Source: a virus (taxonomy: Duplodnaviria; Caudoviricetes). From it: a DNA stretch of 57,162 nucleotides. How positions within the stretch are numbered: the first letter of the stretch is position 1; each line of letters begins with the position of its first letter. Of the stretch, positions 2,731-57,162 are shown one piece after another. The notes beneath the pieces were generated by a model. The model saw nothing but the letters and a program-made list of their open reading frames with translations. It had not been told where the DNA came from and ran no database searches. The stretch covers positions 1 to 57,162 of IMG/VR virus record IMGVR_UViG_3300001335_000513. One strand, 5' to 3'. The position numbers and the translations under genes were made by a program.

Positions 2731-3675
2731 TTAAGTGTTAATGATTTTTAAATAATTATTTGTTAATTTGTCCGGGTCGGTATTCATAATCATTTTGATT
2801 ATAAATTCGGCCCATAAACGATTTGAAACAATAATGCTTTCTAATCCTACATTTTCCGGAATAAGTATGCTTGTACCTACATTGTAAAGGTCATAAGCAT
2901 TTTTAATCTCTTTACTGTCTGCCGCTTCACGAAGTTTCATAACAAACCGATAAATGTCGTCTTTAAGAAACGGTACTTTTCTTTCACCTTTTCCAGAATT
3001 AACAGTCATTATGAATAAATGACCAATCAAAGTTGGTATCATATCATTATCCAGGTTTACTCTTACTTTCTGCATAGCCTTAACGATATCACCATTTACT
3101 GAACAAACTTGTTTGAAGTCATTTATAAAATGTGTTACCCGTTCAATCATTTCATAATATTCAATTGCGTTGTCGTTTCCTAAACCGGAAGTACTCAAGA
3201 TTGAACCTTTACCGCCAAGAATACACAAGTTTGAACATACAGTGTAATTCAAACCAAATGCAATTTGAACACCACTTTGGTTATATGCTACAGCAATAAC
3301 ACCATTATGTTTGGGTGGATATTCATTAGGAATAACAATCCTTGTAATAAGTTTATGAAAAACCCATTTGTTAAACGGTACTGGCATTAGTGGATCAAAA
3401 CCTTCTTTTTGCATTTCAGAAAGTTCAAAATCTTTTGATGAATTTAATTTTGATACAATAATGTCTTCTTGTAAAAAACTAATTTCTGCTTTTTCAAGTA
3501 ATTCATGGATTCTTCTTAAAAGTAAAGCCGGATGTTCAGGTCGGTTTGGAAATGGTTTTCCGGAAGAAGAAACAATATTTCTGGACTGTGCTAACTGATG
3601 AATAGTAATTTTAGCAATCTGTTCTTTTTCGGGAAAATTAAAAGTTTCCTGTGTTTTAATTTCTGGATTTTCCAT
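2731..3675 (-). CDS. DUF932/DUF3871-like phage protein
   Basis: IAVAYNQSGVQIAFG..VCSNLCI and AYDLYNVGT motifs. Confidence 0.6.
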   Translation of the reverse strand: MENPEIKTQETFNFPEKEQIAKITIHQLAQSRNIVSSSGKPFPNRPEHPALLLRRIHELLEKAEISFLQEDIIVSKLNSSKDFELSEMQKEGFDPLMPVPFNKWVFHKLITRIVIPNEYPPKHNGVIAVAYNQSGVQIAFGLNYTVCSNLCILGGKGSILSTSGLGNDNAIEYYEMIERVTHFINDFKQVCSVNGDIVKAMQKVRVNLDNDMIPTLIGHLFIMTVNSGKGERKVPFLKDDIYRFVMKLREAADSKEIKNAYDLYNVGTSILIPENVGLESIIVSNRLWAEFIIKMIMNTDPDKLTNNYLKIINT

Positions 3676-3906
3676 TTTAATAATATTTAGTTAATTAATA
3701 ATTGGTAAATAAATGATGGTTTTTTATAATTTATCATGCCGTAGATTAAAAAAAAGGACTGTTATTTGCCAAAATGTCTATCATAGAGTGCCAGAAACAT
3801 ACCCATAACAAGTTATGAAAATTATCCATGAAGTAACATTAATAAAGCAAATTAACAGCCCAAGACGATAAAAATAGATGAAAATATAAGATAAATACTG
3901 AAAACA

Positions 3907-5220
3907 TTAATAATCTAAACTAATGTTAGTATTAATTTCCATCGATTTTATAAGTTCAAAAATAATACTGTTTACAAAAATTTCGTTTTTATGAGATAAA
4001 TTATTTTTGTAATATGTGTTGGCAGAAATAATTATGTTTGCTAAATCAAACTGACTATTAAAACTTTTAATATTAGAGTATAGAATAGCATTATTACGGT
4101 CAATATAAAAGTATTTTGAATCAGGTGATTTAATAGCTATTATCTTTTTAATTCTTAATTTATAATTAGAATTAATAAAAAGAGTTAAAACTTTAGTTAA
4201 ATTATTGTTTTGCTCTTCAGACAAACCAGTAATATCCAAATTTTTTGGTTTATCTTGGAAGGGATCATGAACAAAATTAAGTTCATTGTAATATTTACCA
4301 TAAAGACTTATATACAAACCAAGATTAAGATAAACACAATTAGAATTACTTGCGTAAAATCCACTGTATTCATAAGGAACAATGGTTTTTCCTATTAATG
4401 CTTCTTTCCATTCGGATAATAAATTTAATCCAGACATATTGACTTTGCTTTCAATAAACTTTGAATTTGTTGAAGCTTCAATGAAATTTTTAATAATGTT
4501 AACATCATTACATTTTTCATAAAACAAACTTAATATTGAAAGAATATCAAAATAATCAGCCAATCTGTCTTCACCAATTTTAAGTAAGTCAAATTCATAA
4601 TCGTATAGTGAAGATAAAGATTCATTATTATAGCATAATATTCCGTGTCGATAAATTCTTACGTTTCCTTCACGTGAAGAAGATAAAATTGCTCCGTATT
4701 CATTTCGGTACTTTGCGTGTGTATTGACTGAAAAATATTTATCCCAATTAGAACAAATTTCGTTTAATTCATCGTTAAGTTCAATTAAAAATGTCGTGTA
4801 ACCTTTACGAATCGGTAAAACATCTTCTTTGTTGTCACATACGTAACATGTTGAATCACCTTCGTCAATTGCATTACAATAAATCTCTCTTATAGCTTGC
4901 CATAAACTCCAATCAGCACCCATCAGAGTCGTAATGCTTGTTTCAATATCATCAATCAATATCAATTTATAATCTATGTTGCGAAAAGACTTGTCAATAG
5001 TTGAAGTATGTATGTTTTTCAGACCACTGTAAATATTAATGTTAAAATCGTTCCTGAGTAAATATGCCAAAGCATATTTGATACCTGTACCAAAATAACC
5101 AATTTTGTTTTTTACGTTTTTACCTTTAACATCCCTTTTATCAGTAATGCCAAGCAAATACAAAGCTTCTGTTTCAATTTCGCCTTTGTTTGAAATTGCT
5201 AAATATTTTTTGTTTTTCAT
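3907..5220 (-). CDS. GHKL (HATPase_c/HSP90-like) ATPase-domain protein
   Basis: IGYFGTGIKYA (G-box-like) and REIYCNAIDEG (N-box-like). Confidence 0.7.
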   Translation of the reverse strand: MKNKKYLAISNKGEIETEALYLLGITDKRDVKGKNVKNKIGYFGTGIKYALAYLLRNDFNINIYSGLKNIHTSTIDKSFRNIDYKLILIDDIETSITTLMGADWSLWQAIREIYCNAIDEGDSTCYVCDNKEDVLPIRKGYTTFLIELNDELNEICSNWDKYFSVNTHAKYRNEYGAILSSSREGNVRIYRHGILCYNNESLSSLYDYEFDLLKIGEDRLADYFDILSILSLFYEKCNDVNIIKNFIEASTNSKFIESKVNMSGLNLLSEWKEALIGKTIVPYEYSGFYASNSNCVYLNLGLYISLYGKYYNELNFVHDPFQDKPKNLDITGLSEEQNNNLTKVLTLFINSNYKLRIKKIIAIKSPDSKYFYIDRNNAILYSNIKSFNSQFDLANIIISANTYYKNNLSHKNEIFVNSIIFELIKSMEINTNISLDY

Positions 5221-5222
5221 GA

Positions 5223-5837
5223 CTATGAGTTATTTGAATTATTCTTTTTATCAAATATGAATTCTACAAAATGTACGATATATAAATACGTATTCAAATA
5301 TATTTGACATTGATTTTCACTTATATATCCTAACTGATAAAGTTTGTAGCCGAATGATATAGAAAAAATATTTACCATTCGAGTTTTGTCAAAATGATGG
5401 TTACCCATATAACTGAAATTAAAATCAAAATTATCATTAACTATATCTTTAATTAGACATAAAAAAGCATGTATTGATTTTAATGGAAAATCATCATCCG
5501 TTATGTTTTTTGTAGTATTTAATATATTCATCAATTCTTCCAAATTAATATCTTCATTACCCATAAAACTAAAACTTAATGAAAAAGAATTTCCATCAGT
5601 CTTCGATTTAAAGTAATTACTTATAAAATTTTCGAAATCACATCCATAAACTTTGAGAAAACTTATTATTTCCATAATTATAGAACTACTGTCCTCATCA
5701 AGTTCTTTTAATTTGTCCATTAAAATATTAGTAACCTCTAAAGAATTAATGTCAAAGGATTTTTGAGCAATCATTTTCATCGCTTCACTTTTTGAATACT
5801 CAGGTAATGGAATAAATACAAATTCTTTGTCTTTCAT
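5223..5837 (-). CDS. hypothetical protein
   Basis: 204-aa ORF, operonic. Confidence 0.65.
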   Translation of the reverse strand: MKDKEFVFIPLPEYSKSEAMKMIAQKSFDINSLEVTNILMDKLKELDEDSSSIIMEIISFLKVYGCDFENFISNYFKSKTDGNSFSLSFSFMGNEDINLEELMNILNTTKNITDDDFPLKSIHAFLCLIKDIVNDNFDFNFSYMGNHHFDKTRMVNIFSISFGYKLYQLGYISENQCQIYLNTYLYIVHFVEFIFDKKNNSNNS

Positions 5838-5849
5838 GACTGTATGTTT

Positions 5850-6311
5850 TTAATTATTGATTTGTAATAAGGTAATATCTTTTATAATTGTTCCGGCAAT
5901 AAGAATCATTTCACCATATCCATATCTACCAATTACTGCATTCCACAATTTACCCGACAATGTCATTTTTATCAATACGAAACAATAATTTTCTGAACAT
6001 TTATTATGCCAATTGTTAAGCCCAGAAAGTAATTTTAAAGCATCTTCTTTTTCAACAAATACAGAAGTTTTACCAAAATATTCCTTTCTTATAAAACGAC
6101 AATGGTCACTTTTGGTCAAATCTCTTGTGTTAAAATTATGATTAAAATAAGTAGTCATAGCTTTAGATACCTTAATCATTTTTACCGGACCTATTTTGTA
6201 AAGCATCCCTGTCGCTGGCGAATATAACTTACCAGTTTTTTTGTTCAGTACTGCAACCTTCCATCCAGTAAATTCTTCTTCTTCTTCAAACCTATCTATT
6301 AGTATACACAT
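5850..6311 (-). CDS. hypothetical protein
   Basis: 153-aa ORF, operonic. Confidence 0.65.
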   Translation of the reverse strand: MCILIDRFEEEEEFTGWKVAVLNKKTGKLYSPATGMLYKIGPVKMIKVSKAMTTYFNHNFNTRDLTKSDHCRFIRKEYFGKTSVFVEKEDALKLLSGLNNWHNKCSENYCFVLIKMTLSGKLWNAVIGRYGYGEMILIAGTIIKDITLLQINN

Positions 6312-6339
6312 AACTTTTATTATTTATTGGTTAAAAATG

Positions 6340-6415
6340 AAAAGGAAAAAAGAGTCCCGGAGAAGAACAAAAACCGGGACTCCGTCATGAAAAATCCCTG
6401 CTGTTATACAGGAAT
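6340..6415 (-). ncRNA. candidate antisense sRNA or 3'-UTR element ending in an intrinsic terminator
   Basis: Minus strand: 7-bp hairpin (6394-6415), TTTTTCATGAC linker, 9-bp GC stem 6352-6360/6374-6382, T tract. Confidence 0.5.
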
Positions 6416-6424
6416 ATCTTTTAA

Positions 6425-7111
6425 TCAATTCTTGTTTATTGATGATATATGTTTTAAAACTTTATCCTTAATACTTGAATCAATTTTTAAAATTGATTCA
6501 TTAGTTTCTTGTACAATCCCGTCAAGAATTACATATGTAATTTGTAGTATCAAACATTCTTTATCTGTAATTACTGAATCCCTTCGCATATATTCAAATA
6601 TATCATAAAACATCTGAAAATATAAACTCATAGATTCATTCTCAAAATTCTTGACCCGCCTTTTACCAGTAAAACTAACAAAATCTGGCTCAGTTAAGTA
6701 TTCTTCTAATACATTGGAATAACACTCTGCAATCTTACAATTTATATAGGTTGTAGGACCAATATGATTTTTCGAAAGTTCTTTTAATTTTGTAATTTCT
6801 GAATTTAAAATACCTGGTTCTGAATAATTACTAGCTATTAAAGAATTTACAAAACGTGACGTGAGTATATTCATTGTCAACAAAAAAGTATTTATGTGTG
6901 AACAAATCTTAACCAAATGTTTGTATGATGTCTCTTTAATCTTATCGTCTTTATCATCTTTGTGAAAAAAATGAAAAATTATTTTAAAATATGAATTTAT
7001 TAATTTATCCCGTATTGGTTCATCTTCACTTAATGAAGATAATTCATCCCTTAATGATGTGTAAATCCCAATCATCGATTCATACAAATCCTTTTTTAAT
7101 AACTTTTTCAT
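6425..7111 (-). CDS. hypothetical helical protein (start revised from 7201 to 7111)
   Basis: In-frame ATG 7111 lies 36 bp from a CCATCATTT motif, the same spacing as at genes starting 3675 and 9978. Confidence 0.65.
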   Translation of the reverse strand: MKKLLKKDLYESMIGIYTSLRDELSSLSEDEPIRDKLINSYFKIIFHFFHKDDKDDKIKETSYKHLVKICSHINTFLLTMNILTSRFVNSLIASNYSEPGILNSEITKLKELSKNHIGPTTYINCKIAECYSNVLEEYLTEPDFVSFTGKRRVKNFENESMSLYFQMFYDIFEYMRRDSVITDKECLILQITYVILDGIVQETNESILKIDSSIKDKVLKHISSINKN

Positions 7112-7217
7112 GACTCTTTTTTTTAAGTTTATTTTTGTTAGCAAGTAAATGATGGCCTGTCCTTGACCTTCAAACTTTTTTGTAATACTTTTGTAGTTCA
7201 TTAATATCCCTTATCCT

Positions 7218-7335
7218 GTGAACAAAAAGTACAAATATAGTGAACTAAAAATATCTAATAATAGTTCAGTTTTTCCCCATATAAAGTGTACAAAAAGTTC
7301 ACAGTTCCTGAACTCCCAGTTCATACTACGTGAAC
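7218..7335. repeat. iteron-like TGAAC/GTTCA cluster, candidate replication origin
   Basis: Seven TGAAC/GTTCA copies in both orientations within about 120 bp, just upstream of the RepL-like gene. Confidence 0.55.
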
Positions 7336-7411
7336 TAATCACTCCTGTGTATCAGTCAATTAAATACTTCCCCTCTTAATACTCTTATATAACACTTAAA
7401 AACCATAGTTT

Positions 7412-7981
7412 ATGAAACCTAAAATCCAATACAAAGATCGTCAAAGATTTCAGAAAAATCCTTTCATTAACCAATTAAAAGCTACGCTTATCAAAACAGT
7501 TAAATCCGAACAATTCGGTACTGAACAAATTATCGTTAATCAGTCTACTGGTGAATTCGAAGGATCTCCTGTCCTTATTAGAAAAAGAAAAGTAGATGCT
7601 AATAAATTTGTTAAAATGTATATTAATACTATGACCGCTTGGCTTAGCCTTTCTCCTAAAGCTCAAAAAATCCTTTACCTTATTATCCAAAATATGAAAC
7701 CTAATTCTGATATCGTTAAAATCGATCCCAATAGTCAAGACGTGAAAAACAGTACTGGACTCAATTCTAAAGTGTCTATATACGGAGGACTCGACGAGTT
7801 AATTGACCGGAATATAATAGCCAAGGCGAGGTATGTTGATCAATTTTACATAAATCCGAGTGTAATGTTTTCGGGTAACAGGATACTATTCATAGAGATG
7901 TTAGAGAAGAACGGAAGTGAGCGAAAGATGCTTTCTAAGGATTCTGACTCATCAAAGTTAGAAGAGTACGAGATGGATTAA
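7412..7981 (+). CDS. repL: RepL-like replication initiator (wHTH)
   Basis: NPF...TGE...VDANKFVKMY...IYGGLDELIDRNIIAK..FYINPSVMFSGNR pattern of RepL-type proteins. Confidence 0.75.
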   Translation: MKPKIQYKDRQRFQKNPFINQLKATLIKTVKSEQFGTEQIIVNQSTGEFEGSPVLIRKRKVDANKFVKMYINTMTAWLSLSPKAQKILYLIIQNMKPNSDIVKIDPNSQDVKNSTGLNSKVSIYGGLDELIDRNIIAKARYVDQFYINPSVMFSGNRILFIEMLEKNGSERKMLSKDSDSSKLEEYEMD

Positions 7982-8074
7982 TACTTATGAATCGGTTAGG
8001 TGAATTTAATGAACCGGTTCGGTGCATTATTTATCATTTTGAAAAAAAAAGATGGATTCAGGAAGAATATTCAT

Positions 8075-8082
8075 TATATTTG
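8075..8082 (+). promoter_or_regulatory. Bacteroidota -7 promoter element (TAnnTTTG)
   Basis: TATATTTG; points into about 70 nt of non-coding sequence ending at the terminator 8124-8156. Confidence 0.4.
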
Positions 8083-8123
8083 CAATCTTATACCTCTCAT
8101 CATCTTTTGTCAAAGCCCGATGT

Positions 8124-8156
8124 AAAAAAAAGCCCCTCTTGGATGAGGGGCTTTTT
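8124..8156. terminator. bidirectional intrinsic terminator
   Basis: A8-GCCCCTC-ttggat-GAGGGGC-T5 between convergent genes. Confidence 0.85.
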
Positions 8157-8159
8157 GGT

Positions 8160-8801
8160 TTAGAAGTTGTCATCGACAGCTTTCGCTTTGATGACTTCAA
8201 CTTTACCGTTGAGGATGCTGGTTGAGCCAGTATATCCCCACTTGTTGAACGAGCCGATGTCGGGGGGTGCTTGTCGGTTCATATAAGTGCGGTTTTTAAC
8301 AACAGCACTGAACCGGCAACCGGGCAGGTCGTTGATTTTTGCACCTTTTACGGGTAGGGCTTCCCAAACGCCAGGTTCTTTCTCTCTTTCGCACGAAGCG
8401 AACATAGAGTTAAGAATGTTCAGGGCAGCCTTTTCCTTAACAGGTGAAATCAGCCGACGTTTTGTTTCAACGTCGACAGCGTATCCTGCCGGATGGCTCG
8501 AACGGAAATACCCGGTAGTATCGGACAGTTCATCGAATTTCACAAATCCAACGATGTTGAATCTGTGAAATGCGAGTTGTCCGTTTTCAGCACGGATACC
8601 GAGTAACAGTTGCTCGTGTTCGTCGGTGTAGTCAACACCGGCTTCATCGAGTTCTGCTTGCGTCTTGCGTTCACCTTCGAGGTTTTTTATCCGGTCGCTT
8701 TCCAGCACCTTAACTACCTCAATGGTGAAGTTGTGACGCCCGTCATCCAGGGTGCCATAGTTGGTCACCGGGATGTCGGATTTAAACTTCGTCAAGTTCA
8801 T
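8160..8801 (-). CDS. possible ssDNA-binding (OB-fold-like) protein
   Basis: LDDGRHNFTIE N-terminus and acidic-aromatic C-terminus (DDNF); function inferred; visibly GC-richer than flanks. Confidence 0.5.
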   Translation of the reverse strand: MNLTKFKSDIPVTNYGTLDDGRHNFTIEVVKVLESDRIKNLEGERKTQAELDEAGVDYTDEHEQLLLGIRAENGQLAFHRFNIVGFVKFDELSDTTGYFRSSHPAGYAVDVETKRRLISPVKEKAALNILNSMFASCEREKEPGVWEALPVKGAKINDLPGCRFSAVVKNRTYMNRQAPPDIGSFNKWGYTGSTSILNGKVEVIKAKAVDDNF

Positions 8802-8823
8802 AGCTTATGAATTTGAAGTTTTG

Positions 8824-8849
8824 TGGCAATATTGCCAAGTAAATGATGG
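8824..8849 (-). promoter_or_regulatory. CCATCATTT motif plus TGGCAATATTGCCA palindrome
   Basis: Near-identical copies at 9519-9545 and 9997-10022. Confidence 0.75.
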
Positions 8850-9190
8850 AGAAAACTATCAAATACTGTGAAAATGATGGTTTTTTCAAACCACACCAAC
8901 CACTGTCGGGCGTAGCCCGATAGTGTGCATGAGTGAATCCATGAAGCATTGTTGTGCAAAACAACAAGGCTTTATGGATGAGCGATTGCATGATGGTGTA
9001 TACATTAGTGGCTGTGGTGAATGATTTATGTGCTGTGGTACCCTGGTATCAAAATGTAAAAAAAATGCATTCTATGCAAAAGGGTTCATGAATTAGATAC
9101 ATAAATAAGGTGAATTGGATTTGTGAGAAAAGAATTAAAAAAAAACCTTGCGTTGTGCAAGGTTTTACATAATCATACGATGTTTCAGGG

Positions 9191-9499
9191 TTAGCTGGAT
9201 TTTGACTCATCTTCAGCAAAAGGCTGTACAGGGTCATAAAGAATTGCTGCACATTCTTCACGAGTTTGGATATCACCAAACATTTTTTCACAAAGAATAC
9301 TTAACCTTTCTTTTGGAGAAAGTAATTCAGTGTTCGATGTGTCGTGTTTTTCAACCTTCTTTTTCATAGGAGTATTTTCCGAATCATTGTAATCATGCAG
9401 AATTTCATGAAACAGTTGTTTTACGACTTCAGCTTCATTAACAGTCATAATGAAACGGATTTTTGAAATCCCATACCCTTTGTCTAAACGTTTTTGCAT
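9191..9499 (-). CDS. hypothetical early protein
   Basis: ORF preceded by the conserved leader motif. Confidence 0.65.
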   Translation of the reverse strand: MQKRLDKGYGISKIRFIMTVNEAEVVKQLFHEILHDYNDSENTPMKKKVEKHDTSNTELLSPKERLSILCEKMFGDIQTREECAAILYDPVQPFAEDESKSS

Positions 9500-9518
9500 A
9501 ACTTTAAAGTTTATATTG

Positions 9519-9545
9519 TTGGCAATATTACCAAGTAAATGATGG
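9519..9545 (-). promoter_or_regulatory. CCATCATTT motif plus palindrome (one variant base)
   Basis: CCATCATTTACTTGGTAATATTGCCAA on the minus strand. Confidence 0.75.
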
Positions 9546-9595
9546 TCTGAATTGAATGTGTGAATCTGTAAATGTATGAATTAAGAAAAAGAAAA

Positions 9596-9625
9596 GAAAA
9601 AAAATCCCTGTCAATGACAGGGATT
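9596..9625 (-). terminator. intrinsic terminator
   Basis: AATCCCTGTC/GACAGGGATT stem with a T tract on minus, after the stop at 9640. Confidence 0.8.
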
Positions 9626-9639
9626 GCTATGAAGTTGAA

Positions 9640-9978
9640 TTATGCAAGAGCAAATTCAACGAATGCAGGATGAGCAATGTGAATCTCAACTTCTTCATTT
9701 GAAGAGTCAAGGACGGCAGTGGCAACAGCTTCATTGCTAATCGAAGATTGTTCAATTAAGACGTTGATGAAGTCTCTTTCCTTTTTAGGGATTACAACCG
9801 GATATCCCAGATGCTTCATCTCTTCTATGAGATTGCCAGGTGATAATGTTTTGGCAACAAAGTTTGGACTGTCTTTAGGCTCTTCAGGAAGTTTTGCTCC
9901 GATTATGAAGTGCCCTCTTTTCTTGTCAACTATTAAATGCAATATGCATTCAACATTGTTAATCAAAAATTTATTCAT
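9640..9978 (-). CDS. hypothetical early protein
   Basis: ORF flanked by the leader motif and a terminator. Confidence 0.7.
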   Translation of the reverse strand: MNKFLINNVECILHLIVDKKRGHFIIGAKLPEEPKDSPNFVAKTLSPGNLIEEMKHLGYPVVIPKKERDFINVLIEQSSISNEAVATAVLDSSNEEVEIHIAHPAFVEFALA

Positions 9979-9996
9979 AGCTTTAAAGTTTAATTA

Positions 9997-10022
9997 TGGC
10001 AATATTGCCAAGTTAATGATGG
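9997..10022 (-). promoter_or_regulatory. CCATCATTA motif plus palindrome
   Basis: CCATCATTAACTTGGCAATATTGCCA on the minus strand. Confidence 0.75.
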
Positions 10023-10024
10023 TG

Positions 10025-10165
10025 TTATGGCATAGAACGTTCAAATTCTTCCATAACTGAAATACATTCACGGCAATAACCAAAAATGCGAATGCTGCTA
10101 ATGTCTGATGAATTGTGGTATTCGTTACCACAACAAGTACATAATTCATTGTCTTGTTCTTTCAT
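10025..10165 (-). CDS. 46-aa putative Zn-ribbon microprotein (not in ORF track)
   Basis: MKEQDNELCTCCGNEYHNSSDISSIRIFGYCRECISVMEEFERSMP; AAAGCT-ATG context. Confidence 0.65.
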   Translation of the reverse strand: MKEQDNELCTCCGNEYHNSSDISSIRIFGYCRECISVMEEFERSMP

Positions 10166-10208
10166 AGCTTTGTTGTTTAATGGTTAATAGAAATCAAAAA
10201 AAAAAGGG

Positions 10209-10313
10209 TCAATCCCTTTTTCTTTTTGATAAACCAAGTATGTCTGCCCAACCTGCTATCCCAAACACAACAAGTATTATCCAGACTATTACTTCAAATA
10301 TTGTCCATTCCAT
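10209..10313 (-). CDS. 34-aa single-TM microprotein (not in ORF track)
   Basis: MEWTIFEVIVWIILVVFGIAGWADILGLSKRKRD; CCATCATAT motif at 10337-10345 upstream; hairpin and T tract at the stop. Confidence 0.65.
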   Translation of the reverse strand: MEWTIFEVIVWIILVVFGIAGWADILGLSKRKRD

Positions 10314-10351
10314 AGCATATGATTTTTAAGTTAATAATATGATGGCAAATG

Positions 10352-10648
10352 TTATTTGCAATACTTTGCAATTAACTCCACAAGTATATCACCATGACAA
10401 GGTAATGGTTTTCACCAACACCCAAGCACTTTGCCTTTCAGTTCACATAAATGCTTTAATAAATATTTGCCTTCACCATTGGTAATCCATTCACGGTATG
10501 CTTCAATAGCCTCATGTCTGCTACCCACAACATATTTAGCAAGTGTTTTACCATCTTGTTTATGTGTGAATGGATTACCCCATTTACTCGGTCTTCCGAT
10601 ATACACATCATACGGTGCTTTCTTGCAATGTACAACCATGTTTTTCAT
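10352..10648 (-). CDS. DUF4326 protein with in-frame TGA at 10412-10414 (recoded, pseudogene or sequence error)
   Basis: VVHCKK..YDVYIGRPSKWGNPF...LKGKVLGCW*KPLPCHGDIL; the family motif continues past the TGA to TAA at 10352. Confidence 0.85.
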
Positions 10649-10705
10649 AGTATAAGGTTTTAAGTTAGTAAAATGATGGTTTGTGAAGATAAAAAAAAGA
10701 GAGGT

Positions 10706-10990
10706 TTAACCCTCTCTTAAGTAAGTCTTCAGCACCCTGACAATATACTCCGTCAGGGTACTGTATGGCTTTCGTGTATTTTGGTTCATCTGCCATGAAC
10801 CTTGGCCGTTATGGCAGCAGTCAAAATACACAGATTTCTCTGTTTTGTACTTATAGATATTGAATGAATATTCTACAGCCCCACATGGGCTGTAGAATGC
10901 CTTTTCGGCCACATAATATTTGTGGCCGAAAATAATGATAACGGCTCTTAACTCGTTATCATTGGTCAACCTAACGTTAACTACTTTCAT
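10706..10990 (-). CDS. hypothetical early protein
   Basis: ORF with motif at 11048-11056 upstream and an AAGAGAGG/CCTCTCTT terminator at its end. Confidence 0.7.
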   Translation of the reverse strand: MKVVNVRLTNDNELRAVIIIFGHKYYVAEKAFYSPCGAVEYSFNIYKYKTEKSVYFDCCHNGQGSWQMNQNTRKPYSTLTEYIVRVLKTYLREG

Positions 10991-11057
10991 TTATATTACC
11001 ACTGCCCTGTGGATTTGTTTTGGCATCTGGCTCGCCATTCATCAATAAGATGATGGT

Positions 11058-11082
11058 AAAAAAAGGGTGCCGAAGCACCCTT
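11058..11082 (-). terminator. intrinsic terminator with UUCG tetraloop
   Basis: AAGGGTGC-TTCG-GCACCC-T7 on the minus strand. Confidence 0.9.
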
Positions 11083-11085
11083 AAC

Positions 11086-11424
11086 TTAGTTAAGACAATA
11101 GTTGTCATCCACCATACCCGTTTCTTCTGGTAATAAGATAGGGTTTATCCTGTAGATGTTAAATAAATGTGTCACATTATCTATTCCTGCTTGTCCAAGA
11201 ATAGTATTGGATATGACACCAAGGCCCTGCAAGAAAGAAATTAATTCTTTTTTGCAAGACGGGATGGTAGTCGTTGATGCCATACCAGGCTTGACAATTG
11301 GCAAGCACTCTGTATAATCGAGTACCTTGCCATTACTTATCAATATAACCTGGTACATGCCTGACGGCTGCCCGACAAAGTTTATCCCTGATAACACTTT
11401 GCCATTATAGATAAAATTATTCAT
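11086..11424 (-). CDS. hypothetical early protein, first leftward gene
   Basis: ORF with motif at 11432-11440, only 8 bp from the ATG. Confidence 0.7.
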   Translation of the reverse strand: MNNFIYNGKVLSGINFVGQPSGMYQVILISNGKVLDYTECLPIVKPGMASTTTIPSCKKELISFLQGLGVISNTILGQAGIDNVTHLFNIYRINPILLPEETGMVDDNYCLN

Positions 11425-11542
11425 AGCAATAAAATGATGGCCCCCCTGGAAGGAAACCTATAAGGCTTTCCATATAGAAGCAGATGGCCTTATGGATTCA
11501 TAAATTTCAAAATTTTTTTTTGATTTTTTTTTAGGTATAAGA

Positions 11543-11550
11543 TAACTTTG
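11543..11550 (+). promoter_or_regulatory. Bacteroidota -7 promoter element
   Basis: TAACTTTG with TTTG at about 11519-11522; upstream of the first rightward gene. Confidence 0.6.
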
Positions 11551-11566
11551 TAAAAAAGGAATAGAT

Positions 11567-11962
11567 ATGGTACACTTATTAATAATATTGTTTGGGATAT
11601 GGAACGGTTACGTGATTCGATGGAGAAGACGGAACGATAAGCGAGATAGCAAGAGATGGCATATTGTCGGAAGGTTGTGTGTAGGATTGTTGCTTTTTAT
11701 GGGGATTTTGCCATTATTTTCATGGGGTGTTTATGTAATTAATCCGTTTTTGTTACTAAGTCCGTGGCATGGAGGAGTAGTTACGTTATTTCTTGCATTT
11801 GGCTGTTCTTACTGGATATATGATATGATAATCAATTACATTAACGGCTGGGATTGGGATTATTCTGGTTCAAAGGATAGCAGGTTTTGGCGAGGGGAGT
11901 TATATGTATGGATATTTCTGGTAACGATATTATTAATATTTGGGAACAGGTTAGACGGATGA
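11567..11962 (+). CDS. multi-pass membrane protein, possible holin
   Basis: About four hydrophobic segments; overlaps the endolysin start. Confidence 0.55.
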   Translation: MVHLLIILFGIWNGYVIRWRRRNDKRDSKRWHIVGRLCVGLLLFMGILPLFSWGVYVINPFLLLSPWHGGVVTLFLAFGCSYWIYDMIINYINGWDWDYSGSKDSRFWRGELYVWIFLVTILLIFGNRLDG

Positions 11963-13174: not shown

Positions 13175-13277
13175 CATATTTGAAAAACCCATCATTTTAT
13201 CACTTAATGTTTAAATATTAGTACAAATATGTTAATAAATTTTGAACTTGATTATTGTAATTTTTAGAAATAATAAT

Positions 13278-13285
13278 TACATTTG
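13278..13285 (+). promoter_or_regulatory. Bacteroidota -7 promoter element
   Basis: TACATTTG about 7 nt before the hairpin at 13293. Confidence 0.6.
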
Positions 13286-13291
13286 AAAATA

Positions 13292-13378
13292 TTTCCGGCT
13301 AAATTTAGTTGGAAGGTTGTTCATAGCTTTAATTACCTTATGTGGCCGGAGTTAAGGAATGCGCTCCGGCCATTTTTT
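13292..13378 (+). ncRNA. candidate ~87-nt antisense sRNA
   Basis: Promoter element, 9-bp 5' hairpin with two G-U pairs, GTTCATAGCTTTAA linker, 9-bp terminator stem, T6. Confidence 0.6.
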
Positions 13379-13391
13379 AAAAAAGATGTTT

Positions 13392-13667
13392 ATGTCAGAT
13401 AAATATATAATAAAGAATGAACATTTACTGATGGATGTTGCCAGGTACAAAATTGGATGGATGTTTATATCAGTATGTAACAGTGGTATGGGTCGTATGA
13501 TATTGCGTAATTCGTTAGAAATGGTCAGGAGTGCGAATTACGAAGCGATGTTATTGTTATTTGATGAAAATGAGAGGAGTCTTTCAGGTTACATTTACAT
13601 TTTTGACAGTGCTGAGCAATACGAATGGTTTATGAAAGAAACAGATTATGTTGAATGGGAAATATAA
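13392..13667 (+). CDS. hypothetical protein (start revised; ATG 13359 lies inside a terminator loop)
   Basis: In-frame ATGs at 13386 and 13392. Confidence 0.55.
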   Translation: MSDKYIIKNEHLLMDVARYKIGWMFISVCNSGMGRMILRNSLEMVRSANYEAMLLLFDENERSLSGYIYIFDSAEQYEWFMKETDYVEWEI

Positions 13668-37126: not shown

Positions 37127-40100
37127 ATGCCTGAAGAAATCCAAAAAAATATTCATAAGGAATTAAAAGAAGCAGGAGCGAAAAAAGTTCCTGTACATAA
37201 AGATGGCTTACCTTCTTTTACCTTACCTGCAAATATCGACCCTTTTGACTTATTATTAACAGATGAGGAAAAACTGTTAAAAGAAGAAAAGAATAAAGTT
37301 AAAGAAAACACAGTTGTTCCAAAACCATTTATGCTTGAAAAGCAAGATGGAGATACTCAAGATAAAAAAACAAAAGGAATAGATTCAGAATCTTTAAATA
37401 TTCCTGATCCTATTGATTTAAAAAATAATGAAGTTACACCCGTTTCTAAAGTTGAATCACCAAATATTAAGGGATTCAATGAAAAGTATGCTTTTCTTAT
37501 GGACCAGGAAAAGGTTGATAAGTATCTGGCTGGAAAGATAAAAGATGATGAACTTCCTGAATATCTACATTATAAATTTGATGAAAGTAATGCTACTCCT
37601 GAAGAGAAAAAATACATAAAAGAAAACCCTAAAAATTTTTATACTCAATTAACTTTTACAGGAGATATAGTTCCTCATCCTATAATGAACAGTCATTTGG
37701 TTGAACCTGGGAAAAAAATAGCAAATATAGATGAAGGAACTGCTCCATCAGAAAAACTTGAGGAACGAAGACGCCAAGATAAATACAAAGAAGTATTAAG
37801 TGAAATAATGCCATTTATTGCGAATGAAAATAATTTACTTGATAATTTTTATCAGGATTTAGTAACTGATGACCAATTTATTGAATATAAGGCAAGGTAT
37901 GATGAACACAGTAATATATTAAAATTATATAATGAAGCAAAAACAAAACAAAAAAACAATGAATGGCCATTTAATGAAGAAGCTGAACCAAAAGATAGAA
38001 TTGAAGAAGAAAGAAATTTATTTTTAGGTTTTGGTCGTGGACCGAGAGATGTGGAAAAACAACAAGGAACTATATATGGTATAATGCAAGATTACCAAAA
38101 CAAAAAAATAGATGAATATGTAGAAGATAATTTTTCTGGTATACACACTGAATTTCGTGAACAAATTAAAAATTATTATAAAGAAACAGTTGATGCCAAA
38201 CAAGAAGGTGAAGTTGTTTTACAAAAAACACAAGAAAAACTACAAGAATTAGGTATAAATATTTCTGAAGAAGACATTGATAATATTGCCTTAGAATTAA
38301 ATAATGCTACAACTGAATTAAATACACTTCAAACAAAATTATCTGAAGAAATTAATGAAATACATATTCAAAATGAAGATGAATATCTTTCCTTATCTGA
38401 AAAAATTGAAAACGAATATCGTGGTCAATTATCTTCTTTAAAAAGTTGGGCAGAACAACCTGATATTACAGACCAATCTTATAAAATAAGAGTTGCAGCT
38501 TATAATGATTTGGTAGAAAAATATAACAATGAACATAAACAAGCATACAACAAGTATCTTGAAAATCATAATAAAAATGTTGTAGAAAAATCAAAAGAAT
38601 ATGAAGAATTTCTTAATAAAAAACAAGAAGAATTATTAAAAGACATTTTGGAAAACAGCAATTTTTATTTTGATGAAAAGTCAGATGAATTAAAACTTAA
38701 TGAGGATATAATAAAACAAGTTGAAAAAATATATGAAGAAACATACAAAGAACATAATAAAGAAACACTTTTAAATAATTTAGCGAAGTACAACAGACAA
38801 AATTGGTGGGCAAGAAAAGCCTCAGCTTGGAAAGCTGGATGGGCTGATTTTTGGAGTAGTATGTCTGGTGGTGTTTCATGGATACTTTCGAAAGAAATTG
38901 GGCAAAAATGGGAAGAAATATCAGAAGGTTATGGATGGCTTGGATTTAAAGACCTTGAAATATATTTAAAAAGAAAGGCAAATGAAAAGATTGATATGCA
39001 AACAATGGTAAGAAAGCTTCCACGAGAACATTATGAAGAACTTGGATTTACCGATGAAGAAATAGCAAGATTTGAAGACCATAATTTAGTTGGAACTTTT
39101 TCATACAGAGATTTGCTTACTGAATCATTTTGGACAACAGAATTTATAAGAATGCTTCCTTTGACCACATCTATGCTTGTACCAGCACTTGCTGGTGGTG
39201 TATTAGGACAAAGAATAGGTGGTATTGTTTCAAAAAGATTTATGGGAAACTTATTAAGTAAATCAGGTAAGGTTTATTTAAAGTCTTCTATGGCTGGGAT
39301 AGTTGGTGCAGTTTCTTCAAGACCTTTTGAAAACTTTTTGGAAGCTGGGGGAGCCTGGGTAGAAACATTAGAAAATGGTGGTACATTAAAAGAGGCTGCT
39401 GCCAATGCATCATCTGTTTACCGGTCTAACTGGAACTTGATTGGTTTAGATGCGTTACAAATAGGTTTTGCTTTTACACCATTAAGGGGTAGATTTTTTA
39501 AACTTGTCGGAGTAATGGCTTTTGAAGGTGCCTCAAACAATTTTGAAGAAAGATACCAAGAATGGTTAGTTCACAGACGATTCAATCCTCTTGTAACATT
39601 TTCAGAATATGCAACAAGTCCGGAAGGAAACATGGTTGGAATTTTAGGTACTTTAAATGCATGGGGTTTTATGGTTCCTAATGCAGCCGGAATAGTTTCC
39701 ACTAATGAGAAGAAAGCTAAAAGGAAAATGCAAGCAAATACCCTGGTTAGGCTATTTGAAATTGGGCAAGATTTAACAAAAAGAAAGAAAGAACTTACAC
39801 AAATATTTGAACATTATAAAGCTACAGGCATAATTACCTTCGAAGAATATACCGAAGCACTAAAAATGCTTGAGAAGACTCATAACATTTTGAAGACCAT
39901 CCAGGGAATGGATGATTTTGAATTGAGAGCAGCACAGTTAATGGAGTTGTCAGCAGAAGAAACAGAATTACTTACAAGAATTGCAAATGCAAAAGATGGT
40001 ACAATTTCAGAAGCATTAAAAGAATCACACAAAGATTTAAAAAAGCAAATCAAAGATATTATTTCTGGAAAAGCTCCAGGATACTTTATCAATGGGGTTC

Positions 40101-43100
40101 CGATTAGTAAATCAGAAATTCAAAATCTGTTAGAAAACAAAGAATTTGTTAAACAAGTTATGTCTGGCGTTCACCAGGTTAATATCTTGAATGATTCAGC
40201 TTTACAAAAACAATACAATCAATTAATTGAAAAAAGTGTTAATGAAAATACTGCACTTATAGAAAAATTAAATAAAGCAAGAAAATCTATAACAAAACAA
40301 ATTTTAGAAGAAAAGATTAGTTTGAAACCTAACAAGAATAAATTAATAAGTCTTGTTAAACGATTAGCACATATTGAAAAAGTAAAAAACAAAGTACTTG
40401 GTAAAATAGCTGTAGGAAAACAAACCAGGCGTGCTGACAAGTTATCTCCTTCTATTAAAGGAAAGGGTCGTGTAAGAATAAAAAGGGCTGTAAAGGCTTT
40501 AAAAAGCGTTAAAAGTCCAGAACAAGCAGTTGCGATAATTTACGATTTTGAAAAAACACTTGGGATGGGTGCTACAGCAACTGCGGCTGAGAAAGCATAT
40601 ATAACAAGAACCAAAAATAGGTTGTCAAAACTTGGATATACATGGTCAAATCCAACGCACCAAGTTTATGATGAAAAAAGTAATGTTGAAGTTGTAGGTT
40701 ATAAAGAAAATACAAAGTTACTATTCGGTCAAAGAATTATTGGTGAAGTAATATCTCCTGAGATATCTAAAGATGGAAAGGTTGTTAGTCCAGCAAAAGT
40801 TATATTAGAAGTTGGTGTAGCAAAAGAGAATGCTTTAACAGCCCAAGAATATTCAGATAAATTTTTTGCAGACCGGGAAAAAAGAAAAGGAAAAGTAGAT
40901 GTTGTAGAAGTAAAGGAAAAGCAACAACTTAAAGCCAAAGAACTTATTGAAAAAGTTGCTAAAGAATTGGGTTATGAACATATTCCTACAAGAAACGAAA
41001 ATGACTTGGGTAGTCCTGCTACTGGCACAAAAACTTTGTTTGATGAAGCAGAAAAAGGTGAACATGAATTCCCACCATCAGTTAACAAAGGTGATGTTCT
41101 TGAAGTTCGTTTAGAAAAAAATACAAAAGGAAAAAGAGTACCTTCTCGTATTGACCCTAAACGTCCAAAATACAAACATTTTCTTAGTTTGTTTAAAGAC
41201 GGCAAATTAGTAGGTGCAATAGCTTACGAAAGTAATCAGGAAAAAGCTGTTCTGAAACTTTTGGAATCAGGGAAAAAAGTTTATGCCTTGGTTACTAAAG
41301 CAAATGCTCCATTTGGGTTTAATTATGAATTGTTAAGCGAAACCGATGATAAACCACAAGAGGACGGTAATAATGTTTTAAATTCAATAGAAATCCCAAG
41401 TATAGAAGAAATTGGAAAAGTTAAATCCAAAAATGAACTTTTCGAATTTGTAAAAGAATTTATGAAAGGTAATAATAGGAAAATTTCATTACTTGTTGAA
41501 GAAGAAATTAAAAATCATTTGCTTGAAAAATTATTTAAAAATGTAGGAAATGCATCTTTACCGTATGTTGAAGCAATGCCTGGTTTGTTAATACAAAGAA
41601 CTACTCGGTCAATTAAAAATACAAAAGAAGCACGTTATAATGCGTTTGTAAGAGTTGATTCTGAAGCATACAAAAGATATCGTGGTTACTTAACCAGTAA
41701 AGTCATTAAAGTACATAATCAGGATTATGTAGCATTAACCAGTCAATTTTATTTGGTGACACCTGATGAGTTAAAAGAATTTAAGAAAAAGTACAGGAAA
41801 ATTTCAAAAGGCATTTTCGAAATGAAACCCGCCAGTCGGGTAAATATTGGATCAATAATAAGAAAATTTTTAAATGCAACACAATCCTTAGAAGGAGAAA
41901 CAATATTATGGGATAACTTAAACAAAGGTCTTGAATTGAATGAACACATTAGTAATATTTTAGAAGAAGAACTTAAGAAAAATACCAAAGAAAACAGGGA
42001 AGCTACAAAAAATTTATTACTCAGTTTATTTCCAAGTCAAGATAAATTCATTGATGAATTATTAGATAATATGAGTGATAATTTCATTTCAAGAATTATT
42101 GTTACAACTGCAAAACTTAGAAAGGGTGTAGCTGCAAATGTTACAGCAGTAGAAAATATTCCATTCAAAGACAATTCTTTTTTAAATCAACTACTCGAAA
42201 TTAGTAATTTGTTTAAGAATAATATTTCGTACAGACAAATTATTACCATAATGAGTAAAAATCAAACTCCATATATTGGTCTTAAAGAATATTTTAAACA
42301 TATAAATAATTTAATTTATGAAGAAGAAAGGGAAGGCACAGATATTACCCAAGAAGAACTTTTTCTTTTGAAAGATTACATAACTAAGTGGGATGGTTTT
42401 TATAAATATCTTAAAACAGTTAATTTCAAACATACGAAATTAACAATTATGTATTTAGCTGGTTATGGAAAGATTGCAAGTTACAAATTGGATAGGATGA
42501 TAATACAGGCCAGGCATTCTATACAAACTTCATTTGAGTCTAAACTGATAGAACTTAATAAAGAAACTCTTGATGAATTACAACTAAAAAAGTTAAGGTT
42601 AATATTGAACATAAAAGAAATGTTCTTTCTTGATCGTTATGGCAAGTATAATATTGAATCTGGAAGTTTACCAAATGATTTAAAGTATAGAATTTATGAC
42701 ATAAAATTAGCTGAAGAATATTCATCTATATATTCTTTCTATCATGAATGCTTACATGCACTTGATTTTTTAACAAAAGGAACAAAGGAAAATAAGAGTC
42801 TACATAAATTTGTAGAAAATTTATATTCAATACCAAAAGTAAAAGAATATTTTGATAATGTAGTTGATCCTTCGTACATTAAAATTCATGGAGAAAATTA
42901 CAATGAAGCATATAGAAGGGCAGAAAGATTTGCTCATATATTAACAGCAATTGTACAAAAAAAAGGTGAATTATGGCAAATAATAAAGATGTCATATATA
43001 TCAAATGGTAAAGATTATGTAAGCTTAATTACTGTATTAAAAGCCTTAATAAATGATTTATTACAATTATTTTTTGGTAATAGATTTAAGGTACAAAATG

Positions 43101-46100
43101 AAGTAAACTTATCAGAATTGGATAAAATAAATCAACAGGTTTATGATTTATTTAGCCGAAAAGATTTGTTTGAAGAGTATTATTACGAAGTTAATGATAT
43201 GAAAATTGGTGTACAACTCAGTACTCCAGAATCATATAAAAATCTTGAAGAAAAGTTACAAAAATTAATTGAAAAATCTGAACAAGAAGGTTTAATCAAA
43301 GATTATAAAGTCTTTGTTAAGATAGATGATAAATTACAAGAAAGCGAATTGTTTAAGAGGATAAATAAAATTTATTCTTATTCAGATGCTTTAAAGATAT
43401 ATCATTTAACGAAACTTCCTGAATTCAAAAAATGGTTCAAAGGGAGTGTAATTGTAAACAGGCAAGGTGAACCATTATTAATGCATCACGGTTCCAACAG
43501 ATTGAGAAATAGATTTTCTTTTGAAGGACTGGCCAAAATTGCTCGTGGCGGTACGCATGGTTTTGGATTTGGTCATTATACCACAAATGTTTTTAAAAGA
43601 GCATTAGAAGAATATTCTAAAGAAGATAAAAGAATAATAAGTTACATATCAAAGAAATACAGTCATTTTGAAAGACAAGCAGCTCCTGAAAACATAGTTT
43701 ATGATATGTTTTTAAACTTAAAAAAAGTATTTAAACTTGATGAAGCTTTAACTGATGAACAAATAAAGGAATTTGAAAATATTGATGTTTTTATTTATGA
43801 AGAAGGTAATGAACCTGATTTAAAATACCGTTTTAATACAGAATTTTCTGGTTCAGCTTATATAAGACCTTCTCAAGTTAAGTATCATATTTCTGAATCC
43901 GGAGAATTAACAATAGTTAAAAACAAATTAGATACTTTACCACCATATATACTTTATATATTGATTAGTGAAAGAAACCAGTTAGAATATGAAGAGGGTC
44001 GAATTACACCAGATGATTTTGAAGAAAAATGGGATGAAGCTATTCATTCTTTAAATTACATAAGTGATGAATATACTATTGGAATGATGATTACATCTAT
44101 ACAATTAGATGAACTTGGTTATGATGGAATTGAACATTTAAGAAGAGATAGAAGTGGAGAAGTCCATTACATTATTTTTGATGGTAATAATATGAAATCC
44201 GTAAATAATTACGGAAATTTTCAAAAAGAAAGCGATAACATATATTATAGTTTGGACACTGAAGAAGGTGATAAAATACTTGATCCTGAATCTGTAAGCA
44301 AAAAGGAATATACAGAAAAAGCAATAAACGAATTAAAAGCATATATTCCGTTACTGATTGAAAATGGACTTACTAAAAAATCTCAAATAAAAGAAGGACT
44401 CAAGGTTTTAACTGCAAAAAGCACCAATTCAGAACTAATAAGCAAAATCATAGATGAAAATATTGGAAAAATTCTTGGTAAAGGTGGTTTTCAAAACATA
44501 AGACTTTCAAAGGAAGACCCTGGCACATTAATATCGAACAAAGAAGCGAAAGAACTTAAAGAAGCATTAGGATTTGTTGTTGATGAAAATTTAATGGAAG
44601 ATGACGAACTTATTGAGGTAACTGAATCTTTTTTTATTACTCAGGAAAAAAGAATTGAAGCACAAAGAGCTGTTTTCAGGAGATTTATGAATCAATTAAA
44701 AAGAAAGTATGGAATTCAAGACCCTGAACGCTTAATATACAATGTAATTCGCAGAAAGGACTTCAAAAAAGCCTTACATAACCAAGAAACGTTTGACAAA
44801 TACATTGAGAATCTCAAAAAAACTCAACCGGAAATATACAAAGCAATAAAGGAAGATCAAATTATATCTTTAGATGAATTGGTAAGTCTTGAGGTATTTT
44901 ACGGAAGTTTAGTTCTTTTACAATCTGTAGTTGCTGACGTAAGAGATAACAGGTCAATTAAAATTTATAACAGAAATAAAGAAATTGACATTGTAGGTTT
45001 AGAAAGAAAAGCAAAACAGAATATTCGAACTTTCACTTACGAAAATGAACTTGATCCGAATAAAGCATTAACAAAAATATATTGGGATTACTTTATTAAA
45101 AGAGATAATAATCAGCCTTCTTATGAACATCAGATAAAAGATTTGTACAGGAACCAACCTGATAAAATGATGAGTGAACTCATTGATTTGTATTGTAACT
45201 TTTTGGAAGAAGTTACAGGAGTTAACGCATCAGTTTGGGAAGGTTACTTCACTGTAGAAAACGAAAAGAAATTTATAACTTCTCAGGGGAAAGAACAACC
45301 AGGTATCATTTATTTTATGAATGCTGATGCAATTAAAAAACCTAATACATCTTTGGCTGTTCAAAAATATTTTTTGGATAAAGATGTAAAAGGTAATGAT
45401 TCGAAAATATTAAGACTTGTACGTTTTGGAAAATTTGTTGATAGCATATCTTTTTCTTTCAATAATGTTGTTAACAACAGAGAAGTCAGTTTTGAATTAT
45501 ACAGTACTCTTTTGAAAGAAGCTGAAAACTTGCACAAATATGCGAAACAAAAGCGATTCAAAAGTAATGGATATGTACAATGGATTGCCAGTACAGGTCA
45601 ATCTGCAGAAATTGTAAAATTTAACGGTATTATAAGTCAAAAAAGCAATAAAGGTCAAGAAGCATTTAAGATGGATAATACTTCCTTATTGGAAGTTTTG
45701 ATGGCTATGTTTAACAAATCGACAGATGACACTTATATGCAATATCTTGGTCAGTTTGCAGATAAAAAGCAAACATACCTGGCAAGGGTAAAAAAGGTAC
45801 ATGATGCTAAAAAAGTATATGAAGAACTTTATGAAAACATAAAGGATAAAAAATTAAAAAATAAACTTGTTGATCCAAAACTAATTACTGATGAATACTT
45901 GTACGATACTTTTTCAGAACTAATAAGAGGAAGTAGCGAATTCAAAAATATTCGTAGCAGAAATGAAATAATTACATTTTTGAAAGAATTCTATTTTAAC
46001 TATTCGCTAAATAAATATTGGACAAATGAAGCTTTTCACGGAAATCTTGATAATTATAATGCTTACACAAGATTTATCAAAATAGCTGGTTCTACAAATT

Positions 46101-55752: not shown

Positions 55753-57162
<1,410 letters not shown>

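Follow-up and report, generated by a model that had tools for sequence, protein, structure and literature searches.

A candidate intrinsic terminator behind an early phage gene and the complementarity of its linker to neighboring translation starts

On the minus strand of this phage contig, the stop codon of an early gene near 6.4 kb is followed by a weak hairpin, a short linker, and a strong hairpin with a T-rich tail, and the linker is complementary to the starts of three genes in the same cluster. The question raised by this locus is whether the element only ends transcription or also carries an RNA segment directed against translation starts, as the first-pass annotation had proposed. On the evidence given below, which was drawn from the entire stretch of DNA analyzed (57,162 bases; hereafter the window), a plain Rho-independent terminator is the favored explanation, with moderate confidence, and the complementarity of the linker is not necessarily functional.

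Genome setting and the early gene upstream of the element

The window corresponds to the whole phage contig and has a G+C content of 32%. Small minus-strand genes fill 1-11.4 kb, and the plus strand after 11.4 kb encodes the terminase, portal, major head protein, and tail fibres, together with a 5,610-aa ORF that forms a single open frame at 37127-53959 (plus strand). Open frames are cut at both contig ends (1-261 on the minus strand and 56731-57162 on the plus strand), such that the record is either incomplete or circularly permuted. The exact sequence is present in four DNA runs from two studies, covering aquatic and freshwater samples and including one that is possibly its source, and no RNA run is found among the sequencing runs listed as carrying it. 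For the four DNA runs, the long contig pieces listed over 3600-11600 contain no other letters, and no variants are listed between 5000 and 6900.

Shine-Dalgarno-like words are found at two of the 45 curated starts. Among these starts, A is frequent at positions -14 to -10 (37, 35, and 32 of 45 at -13, -12, and -11, respectively), T is found at -15 in 31, and a purine is found at -3 in 38. The early genes prefer AG-Y-Y before the ATG. In Flavobacterium johnsoniae, a reported A run covers -14 to -11 of the start context, Shine-Dalgarno sequences are ignored by the ribosomes, and initiation is tuned by structure near the start (PMC6847099). Judged by sequence, the phage start context is a Bacteroidota-type initiation signal that matches the one in F. 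johnsoniae, and these start contexts point to a host that probably belongs to Bacteroidota.

The gene that ends at the element, here termed g7111 (6425..7111, minus strand), encodes 228 aa and has a TGA stop codon at 6427-6425. The longest ORF begins at 7201 and is 258 aa long, and the same start is used in the database cluster representative. On a start-context matrix that was trained without g7111, ATG 7111 scores 8.5 (the 99.6th percentile of all ATGs), whereas ATG 7201 scores -6.3 and falls under all 44 training starts. In addition, a copy of an early-promoter-like motif (CCATCATTTACTTG; 7142..7155, minus strand) is positioned downstream of ATG 7201 and 44 nt before ATG 7111. This copy has the highest matrix score of all (29.2), and its spacing is similar to that of the copy at 9545, which lies 46 nt before ATG 9499. 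Given this motif and the far better context score, ATG 7111 is likely the true start of the gene, in agreement with the first-pass annotation, and the annotated start at 7201 is probably 30 codons too long.

The motif consists of CCATCATTT followed by A/T, A/C, and T-rich bases. Outside the curated genes there are 11 CCATCAT copies with a common flank, 10 of which span 3.7-11.4 kb on the minus strand (3719, 7155, 8849, 8880, 9545, 10022, 10345, 10679, 11056, and 11440) and one of which is on the plus strand (13189). These copies score 18-29 on their own matrix, and the next match in the genome scores 12.8. Most copies are found directly after a terminator and 16-46 nt ahead of an ATG. Based on this position and on its repetition, the motif is probably the early promoter of the phage. 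It resembles neither the host-type consensus nor sigma-70. A host-type promoter was also considered and was rejected, as the genome contains the corresponding word, TANNTTTG, no more often than expected by chance (98 copies, with 97.9 expected).

A palindrome, TTGGCAATATTGCCA (TTGGTAATATTGCCA in one copy), directly follows three of these motif copies (~10012-9998, ~9535-9521, and ~8839-8825, minus strand) and looks like an operator for a dimeric regulator. The segment 7202-7411, located between gene 7412..7981 (plus strand) and g7111 (minus strand), contains several copies of GTTCAC/GTGAAC in both orientations, which may form an operator array. A copy of the motif core (ACCATCATTT) is found at 5400 on the minus strand, inside gene 5223..5837 and 180 nt before ATG 5220, and might serve gene 3907..5220.

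For sequence relatives, a search of 5.8 billion proteins with the product of 6425..7201 returned only the query (258 aa), such that no homologues of g7111 were found, and the protein atlas places the gene in unnamed clusters only. A blastn search of 5000-8000 against 50,697 phage records gave no match. Scans of IMG/VR with the proteins of 6425..7201, 5850..6311, and 3907..5220 and with the terminase found no relative, and neither the exact terminator sequence nor the promoter-plus-palindrome pattern has any match in IMG/VR. When this pattern was loosened, three matches were found in metagenome contigs (G+C 55%, 48%, and 31%; 28-44 nt alike), all of which look like chance and were rejected.

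Gene 3907..5220 (minus strand) encodes a 437-aa protein, the family of which is about 427 aa long and widespread on phage-like contigs. The search of 5.8 billion proteins recovered 91 members including the query, with relatives at most 47% identical. Among the genes searched, this is the only family with homologues. At 80 IMG/VR loci of this family, none of the five nearest genes of the window (5223..5837 to 8160..8801) is conserved; among 19 other window genes compared with these loci, 2731..3675 and the terminase matched one locus each. Of the eight proteins around the element, only that of 3907..5220 matched PHROGs (families of unknown function), none was named by Pfam, and a PDB sequence search for the function of the cluster gave no meaningful match. 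The predicted model of the 3907..5220 protein (pLDDT 83.6) has its best PDB matches to Hsp90 and TRAP1 (low TM of 0.17-0.25, E about 1e-5), which provides a lead only toward a possible GHKL-type ATPase.

Architecture of the 6.4-kb element

The first hairpin (6394..6415, minus strand) is located 9 nt from the stop codon of g7111 and has 8 bp, including two G-U pairs. It is weak (-9.0 kcal/mol) and strand-specific: the z-score is -4.3 with one of 200 shuffles folding as well, the plus-strand counterpart forms only 4 bp, and the plus strand folds less well. The strand asymmetry described in the first-pass annotation is therefore retained, with a stem of 8 bp rather than 7 bp. The 3' arm of this hairpin runs into the T run of the linker, and the hairpin was itself flagged as terminator-like; by eye, its stem is similar to that of the terminator at 9625-9603. 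The linker that follows, TTTTTCATGAC (6384..6394, minus strand), is the proposed anti-start seed and is unpaired between both hairpins in the local fold.

The terminator stem-loop (6351..6383, minus strand) is in sense orientation and begins, at 6383, 42 nt after the stop codon. It has 10 bp with seven G-C pairs, rather than the 9 bp given previously, and a 13-nt loop, with a folding energy of -18.4 kcal/mol (z-score -3.8; one of 200 shuffles folds as well). The T-rich tail, TTTTTCCTTT (6341..6350, minus strand), is located directly 3' of the stem. Its T tract is formed by the last stem base, a T, and TTTTT, giving six T when the stem base is counted, and is followed by CCTTT. The order of hairpin, linker, and terminator downstream of the g7111 stop codon agrees with the original description, as does the presence of a G+C-rich stem with a T tract.

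Scanning the genome for hairpins yielded 12 terminator-like ones in sense orientation, six of which are on the minus strand at 6.3-11.5 kb. These six are interspersed among the 10 minus-strand motif copies, such that the early region consists of terminator-promoter cassettes. As in Rho-independent terminators, including tandem and intercistronic ones, the 6.4-kb element has a G+C-rich sense stem-loop and a U tract after a stop codon, within genes of the same strand; however, it differs in its 13-nt loop, in the weak hairpin upstream, and in being associated with a promoter-like motif that is not host-type.

From the structure, strand specificity, and position, all of which are seen directly, we infer that transcription would be terminated here. 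The weak hairpin and the strong hairpin behind it would close an early unit made up of the motif at 7155, a short leader, and g7111, and the terminator would stop or attenuate transcription before genes 5850..6311 and 5223..5837. Neither of these genes has an early-promoter motif copy of its own, and they presumably depend on read-through.

The best matrix score for the promoter-like motif in 6300-6450 is -1.6, compared with 18-29 for the 11 copies. Because no such motif precedes the element, any RNA that carries the linker would be the 3'UTR of g7111 and not the product of a separate sRNA gene; the separate anti-start RNA proposed for this position is thus not upheld. Rfam covariance models gave no match at gathering score in the whole 57,162-base window.

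Complementarity of the linker to three start codons

The linker has 11 nt of complementarity to the starts of g7111 (GTCATGAAAAA at 7104..7114) and of gene 3907..5220 (GTCATGAAAAA at 5213..5223). For the start of gene 5223..5837 (GTCATGAAAGA at 5830..5840), the match has 9 nt of perfect complementarity together with one G-U and one A-U pair. All three targets are on the minus strand. These matches agree with the first-pass annotation. The motif GTCATGAAA has four copies in the 57,162 bases, all within a 1.9-kb cluster (5215-7114), including three minus-strand copies at ATG 5220, ATG 5837, and ATG 7111 and a fourth, plus-strand copy in the linker. In shuffled sequences the mean was 0.88 copies, and one of 100 reached four. 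The full 11-mer, GTCATGAAAAA, is located at 5220, at 7111, and in the linker. Furthermore, the terminator 3' arm and tail (GACTCTTTTTT; 6346..6356, minus strand) are complementary to AAAAAAGAGTC at 7112-7122, directly upstream of ATG 7111. When the four motif copies were compared over extended flanks, similarity was limited to the motif and the AAAAAAGAGTC stretch; an extended inverted duplication was rejected on this basis.

The leading alternative to a plain terminator, possible though doubtful, is that the linker is a working anti-start segment in the 3'UTR of g7111 that acts most plausibly in cis on its own mRNA. Beyond the complementarity itself, we infer that the linker of a finished transcript would pair with GUCAUGAAAAA at its own start and close the mRNA 5' to 3'. 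The starts at 5837 and 5220 could be additional partners of the linker on read-through or processed RNA. Such pairing would block initiation in a host that lacks Shine-Dalgarno pairing and in which initiation is sensitive to start structure. Because a closed mRNA hides its AUG, translation would then be limited to ribosomes loaded during transcription.

Several observations favor this anti-start role. The 11-bp duplexes of the linker with exactly three cluster starts reach -13.5, -13.4, and -13.3 kcal/mol, compared with -9.5 kcal/mol for the next best of the 45 starts and a median of -5.0 kcal/mol over all of them. Among 600 random intergenic 15-mers, four have a third-best target that is as good, and three of these four are in the 13.3-kb element, which has the same layout behind a promoter-like motif. 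The context AGTC-ATG-AAA is seen three times, with 0.07 occurrences expected among the 45 starts and 0.22 among the 20 early starts. The linker is free between its two hairpins, the second 11-nt complementarity involves bases just upstream of ATG 7111, and both the MFE and the centroid structure of the 800-nt RNA 7140-6341 pair the g7111 start with the linker. The scarcity of Shine-Dalgarno motifs (two of 45 starts) and the A-rich upstream context are also in line with initiation of the kind described for F. johnsoniae (PMC6847099).

Enrichment statistics for the genome point in the same direction. Anti-start 11-mers on the intergenic sense strand were found in nine windows, compared with 2.14 +/- 1.95 in shuffles (P 0.013). 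For k = 9, 10, and 11, there are 16, 10, and 6 intergenic anti-start loci, compared with 5, 1, and 1 in a composition-matched control that is the complement only and does not fully mirror terminator tails. Coding sequences show no excess over the control (77, 19, and 8 compared with 80, 29, and 7). Anti-start matches of at least 11 nt are found in the 28-nt 5' flank of three of the 12 terminators (6383, 9625, and 13342), with a post hoc binomial P of 0.005 against intergenic windows. These post hoc tests place the rarity of the pairing near the 1% level.

However, all of the enrichment tests were chosen after the pattern had been seen, and the sole independent test, on 10 terminators absent from the first-pass annotation, gave P values of 0.13-0.26. 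Complementarities of 11 nt are at background level in this operon: the region 3907-7145 contains 14 perfect 11-nt inverted pairs (8.7 +/- 2.9 in shuffles) and 25 perfect 10-nt inverted pairs (27.1 in shuffles), in addition to 71 imperfect ones. The fold that pairs the g7111 start with the linker follows from the complementarity and so provides no independent evidence. Moreover, the start regions of 5220 and 5837 are 73% alike over 44 nt; the three targets are therefore not independent, and these two count as one. The 5220 start region (5197-5220) also has a longer competing partner in the same mRNA, being complementary at 20 of 24 positions to 5354-5377, with which it could form a leader hairpin.

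The complementarity to the AGTCATGAAA starts is real but may have arisen by chance and need not be functional. A chance match is possible because this SD-less phage uses A-rich ATG-AAA starts, because the terminator supplies a T run, and because CATGA is nearly its own reverse complement; the core TCATGA is exactly so. In the genome, ATGAAAAA is found 26 times, and six of the 54 T runs of at least four bases are followed by CAT, with about 1.5 expected by a rough estimate from base composition. A plain terminator of the g7111 unit is thus preferred to a working anti-start segment.

The other alternatives are weaker. A translation-coupled attenuator, in which the first hairpin (1:2), an alternative hairpin (2:3), and the terminator (3:4) would be mutually exclusive, is improbable. 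The 2:3 hairpin would join the 3' arm of the first hairpin to the 5' arm of the terminator, with UCAUGAC in its loop, and a ribosome that stops at 6427-6425 would release arm 2 and thereby favor read-through into 5850..6311 and 5223..5837. Such an arrangement is consistent with the 9-nt distance between the stop codon and the first hairpin, with the lack of an early-promoter motif at both downstream genes, and with the energy of the alternative hairpin (6398-6376; -8.3 kcal/mol, compared with -9.0 kcal/mol for the first hairpin). However, the 2:3 hairpin is no better than chance (z-score -1.6; 15 of 200 shuffles fold as well) and far weaker than the terminator (-18.4 kcal/mol), and an attenuator leaves the match to the starts unexplained.

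It is very improbable that AGUCAUGAAA is a start-site operator read by a RegA-like protein, with the inverted copy in the linker being incidental. Such an operator would account for a 10-mer that is shared by three starts of one cluster and expected 0.07-0.22 times, but local duplication may account for two of the three, and no candidate RNA-binding protein was found among the eight proteins tested against PHROGs and Pfam. Finally, it is scarcely credible that GTCATGAAAAA at 6384-6394 marks the start of a plus-strand gene (6387..6608, 73 aa), an alternative already named at first pass: the open frame exists and begins with ATG-AAA-AAT, but it is disfavored because the context of ATG 6387 scores -8.6, lower than every one of the 44 training starts and at the 28th percentile of all ATGs. 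In addition, a terminator arm covers its positions -13 to -3, and the frame is antisense to g7111, in a genome where antisense frames of 80-136 aa are frequent. Inspected by eye, its product contains many F, L, I, S, and C residues, and it has no PHROG or Pfam match.

The 13.3-kb element and the proposed family

The first-pass annotation had likened the 6.4-kb element to one at 13.3 kb (13189-13380, plus strand). This likeness holds for the layout, as the motif at 13189 is followed by a hairpin (13292-13315), an unpaired linker (GTTCATAGCTTTAA), and a terminator (13342-13373); by eye, the two elements have no obvious sequence in common. About 190 nt after the motif at 13189 are without a credible ORF, and the listed ORF 13359..13667 starts within the terminator loop, with a score of -15.2 for ATG 13359. 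Four early genes (9978, 2726, 8801, and 10165) have AAAGCTATGA starts that are complementary to the linker GTTCATAGCTTTAA over 11-13 nt. Of the two elements, the one at 13.3 kb is the stronger candidate; it may be read as a candidate sRNA or, just as well, as a leader whose terminator awaits antitermination. The lambda PR'-tR' region is a leader of the latter type, to which the 13.3-kb element could be comparable. A third segment, TTCATAGCAAT (9623-9633, minus strand), is located after the stop of gene 9640..9978 and before the terminator at 9625-9603, the stem of which it enters, and has 11 nt of complementarity to the start of gene 11086..11424.

The claim that these elements form a family of anti-start RNAs is not sustained: three of the 12 terminators carry such segments (P 0.005, post hoc), and the 10 terminators absent from the first-pass annotation gave P values of 0.13-0.26. 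It is rather unlikely that an SD-less freshwater phage places anti-start segments just 5' of its terminators and thereby shuts off its own early gene classes. If this were true, the 3'UTR of g7111 at 6.4 kb would close its own mRNA and could reach the starts at 5837 and 5220. The segment at 13.2-13.38 kb would be an ORF-less RNA of about 170 nt, made from the promoter-like motif and carrying GUUCAUAGCUUUAA, which would act against the AAAGCUAUGA starts of genes 9978, 8801, 10165, and 2726. Similarly, the terminator flank at 9.6 kb, which matches the start of gene 11424, would be a further such segment. In such a scheme, the start context would be the address used for RNA-mediated shut-off of early genes; in phage T4, a protein (RegA) fills this role.

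Parts of such an arrangement have counterparts in known systems. CpxQ and SroC are 3'UTR-derived base-pairing sRNAs that share the terminator of the mRNA, and phage-encoded sRNAs also exist. In common with these, the 6.4-kb element has a single-stranded seed just 5' of an intrinsic terminator, and this seed is complementary to start regions; the element differs in that it is without an internal promoter motif and in that its proposed targets are neighboring genes of the phage itself. The T4 RegA protein represses translation of early mRNAs by reading their starts. Here too, an early gene class would be addressed through the sequence around the AUG, but the proposed reader is an RNA segment rather than a protein. 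In Staphylococcus aureus, the motif UCCCCUG in the 3'UTR of icaR pairs with the Shine-Dalgarno region of its own mRNA, and this pairing gives rise to a substrate for RNase III, as demonstrated by experiment (PMC3868564). Both cases have a short 3'UTR motif that is complementary to the initiation region of its own mRNA, such that pairing would block initiation. In contrast to icaR, the pairing in the phage is predicted from sequence, covers the AUG of an SD-less start, and abuts the terminator.

If the pairing is not functional, the element is an ordinary terminator, and the by-products of this analysis are a revised gene start upstream, at 7111 instead of 7201, and the map of promoter-like motifs and terminators in the early region. 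If the pairing is functional, it would provide a phage case of 5'-3' mRNA closure or of 3'UTR-borne antisense at a start codon, in a system without Shine-Dalgarno pairing in which initiation is controlled mainly by start structure. It would also suggest that phage genes can be assigned to regulatory classes by their start context.
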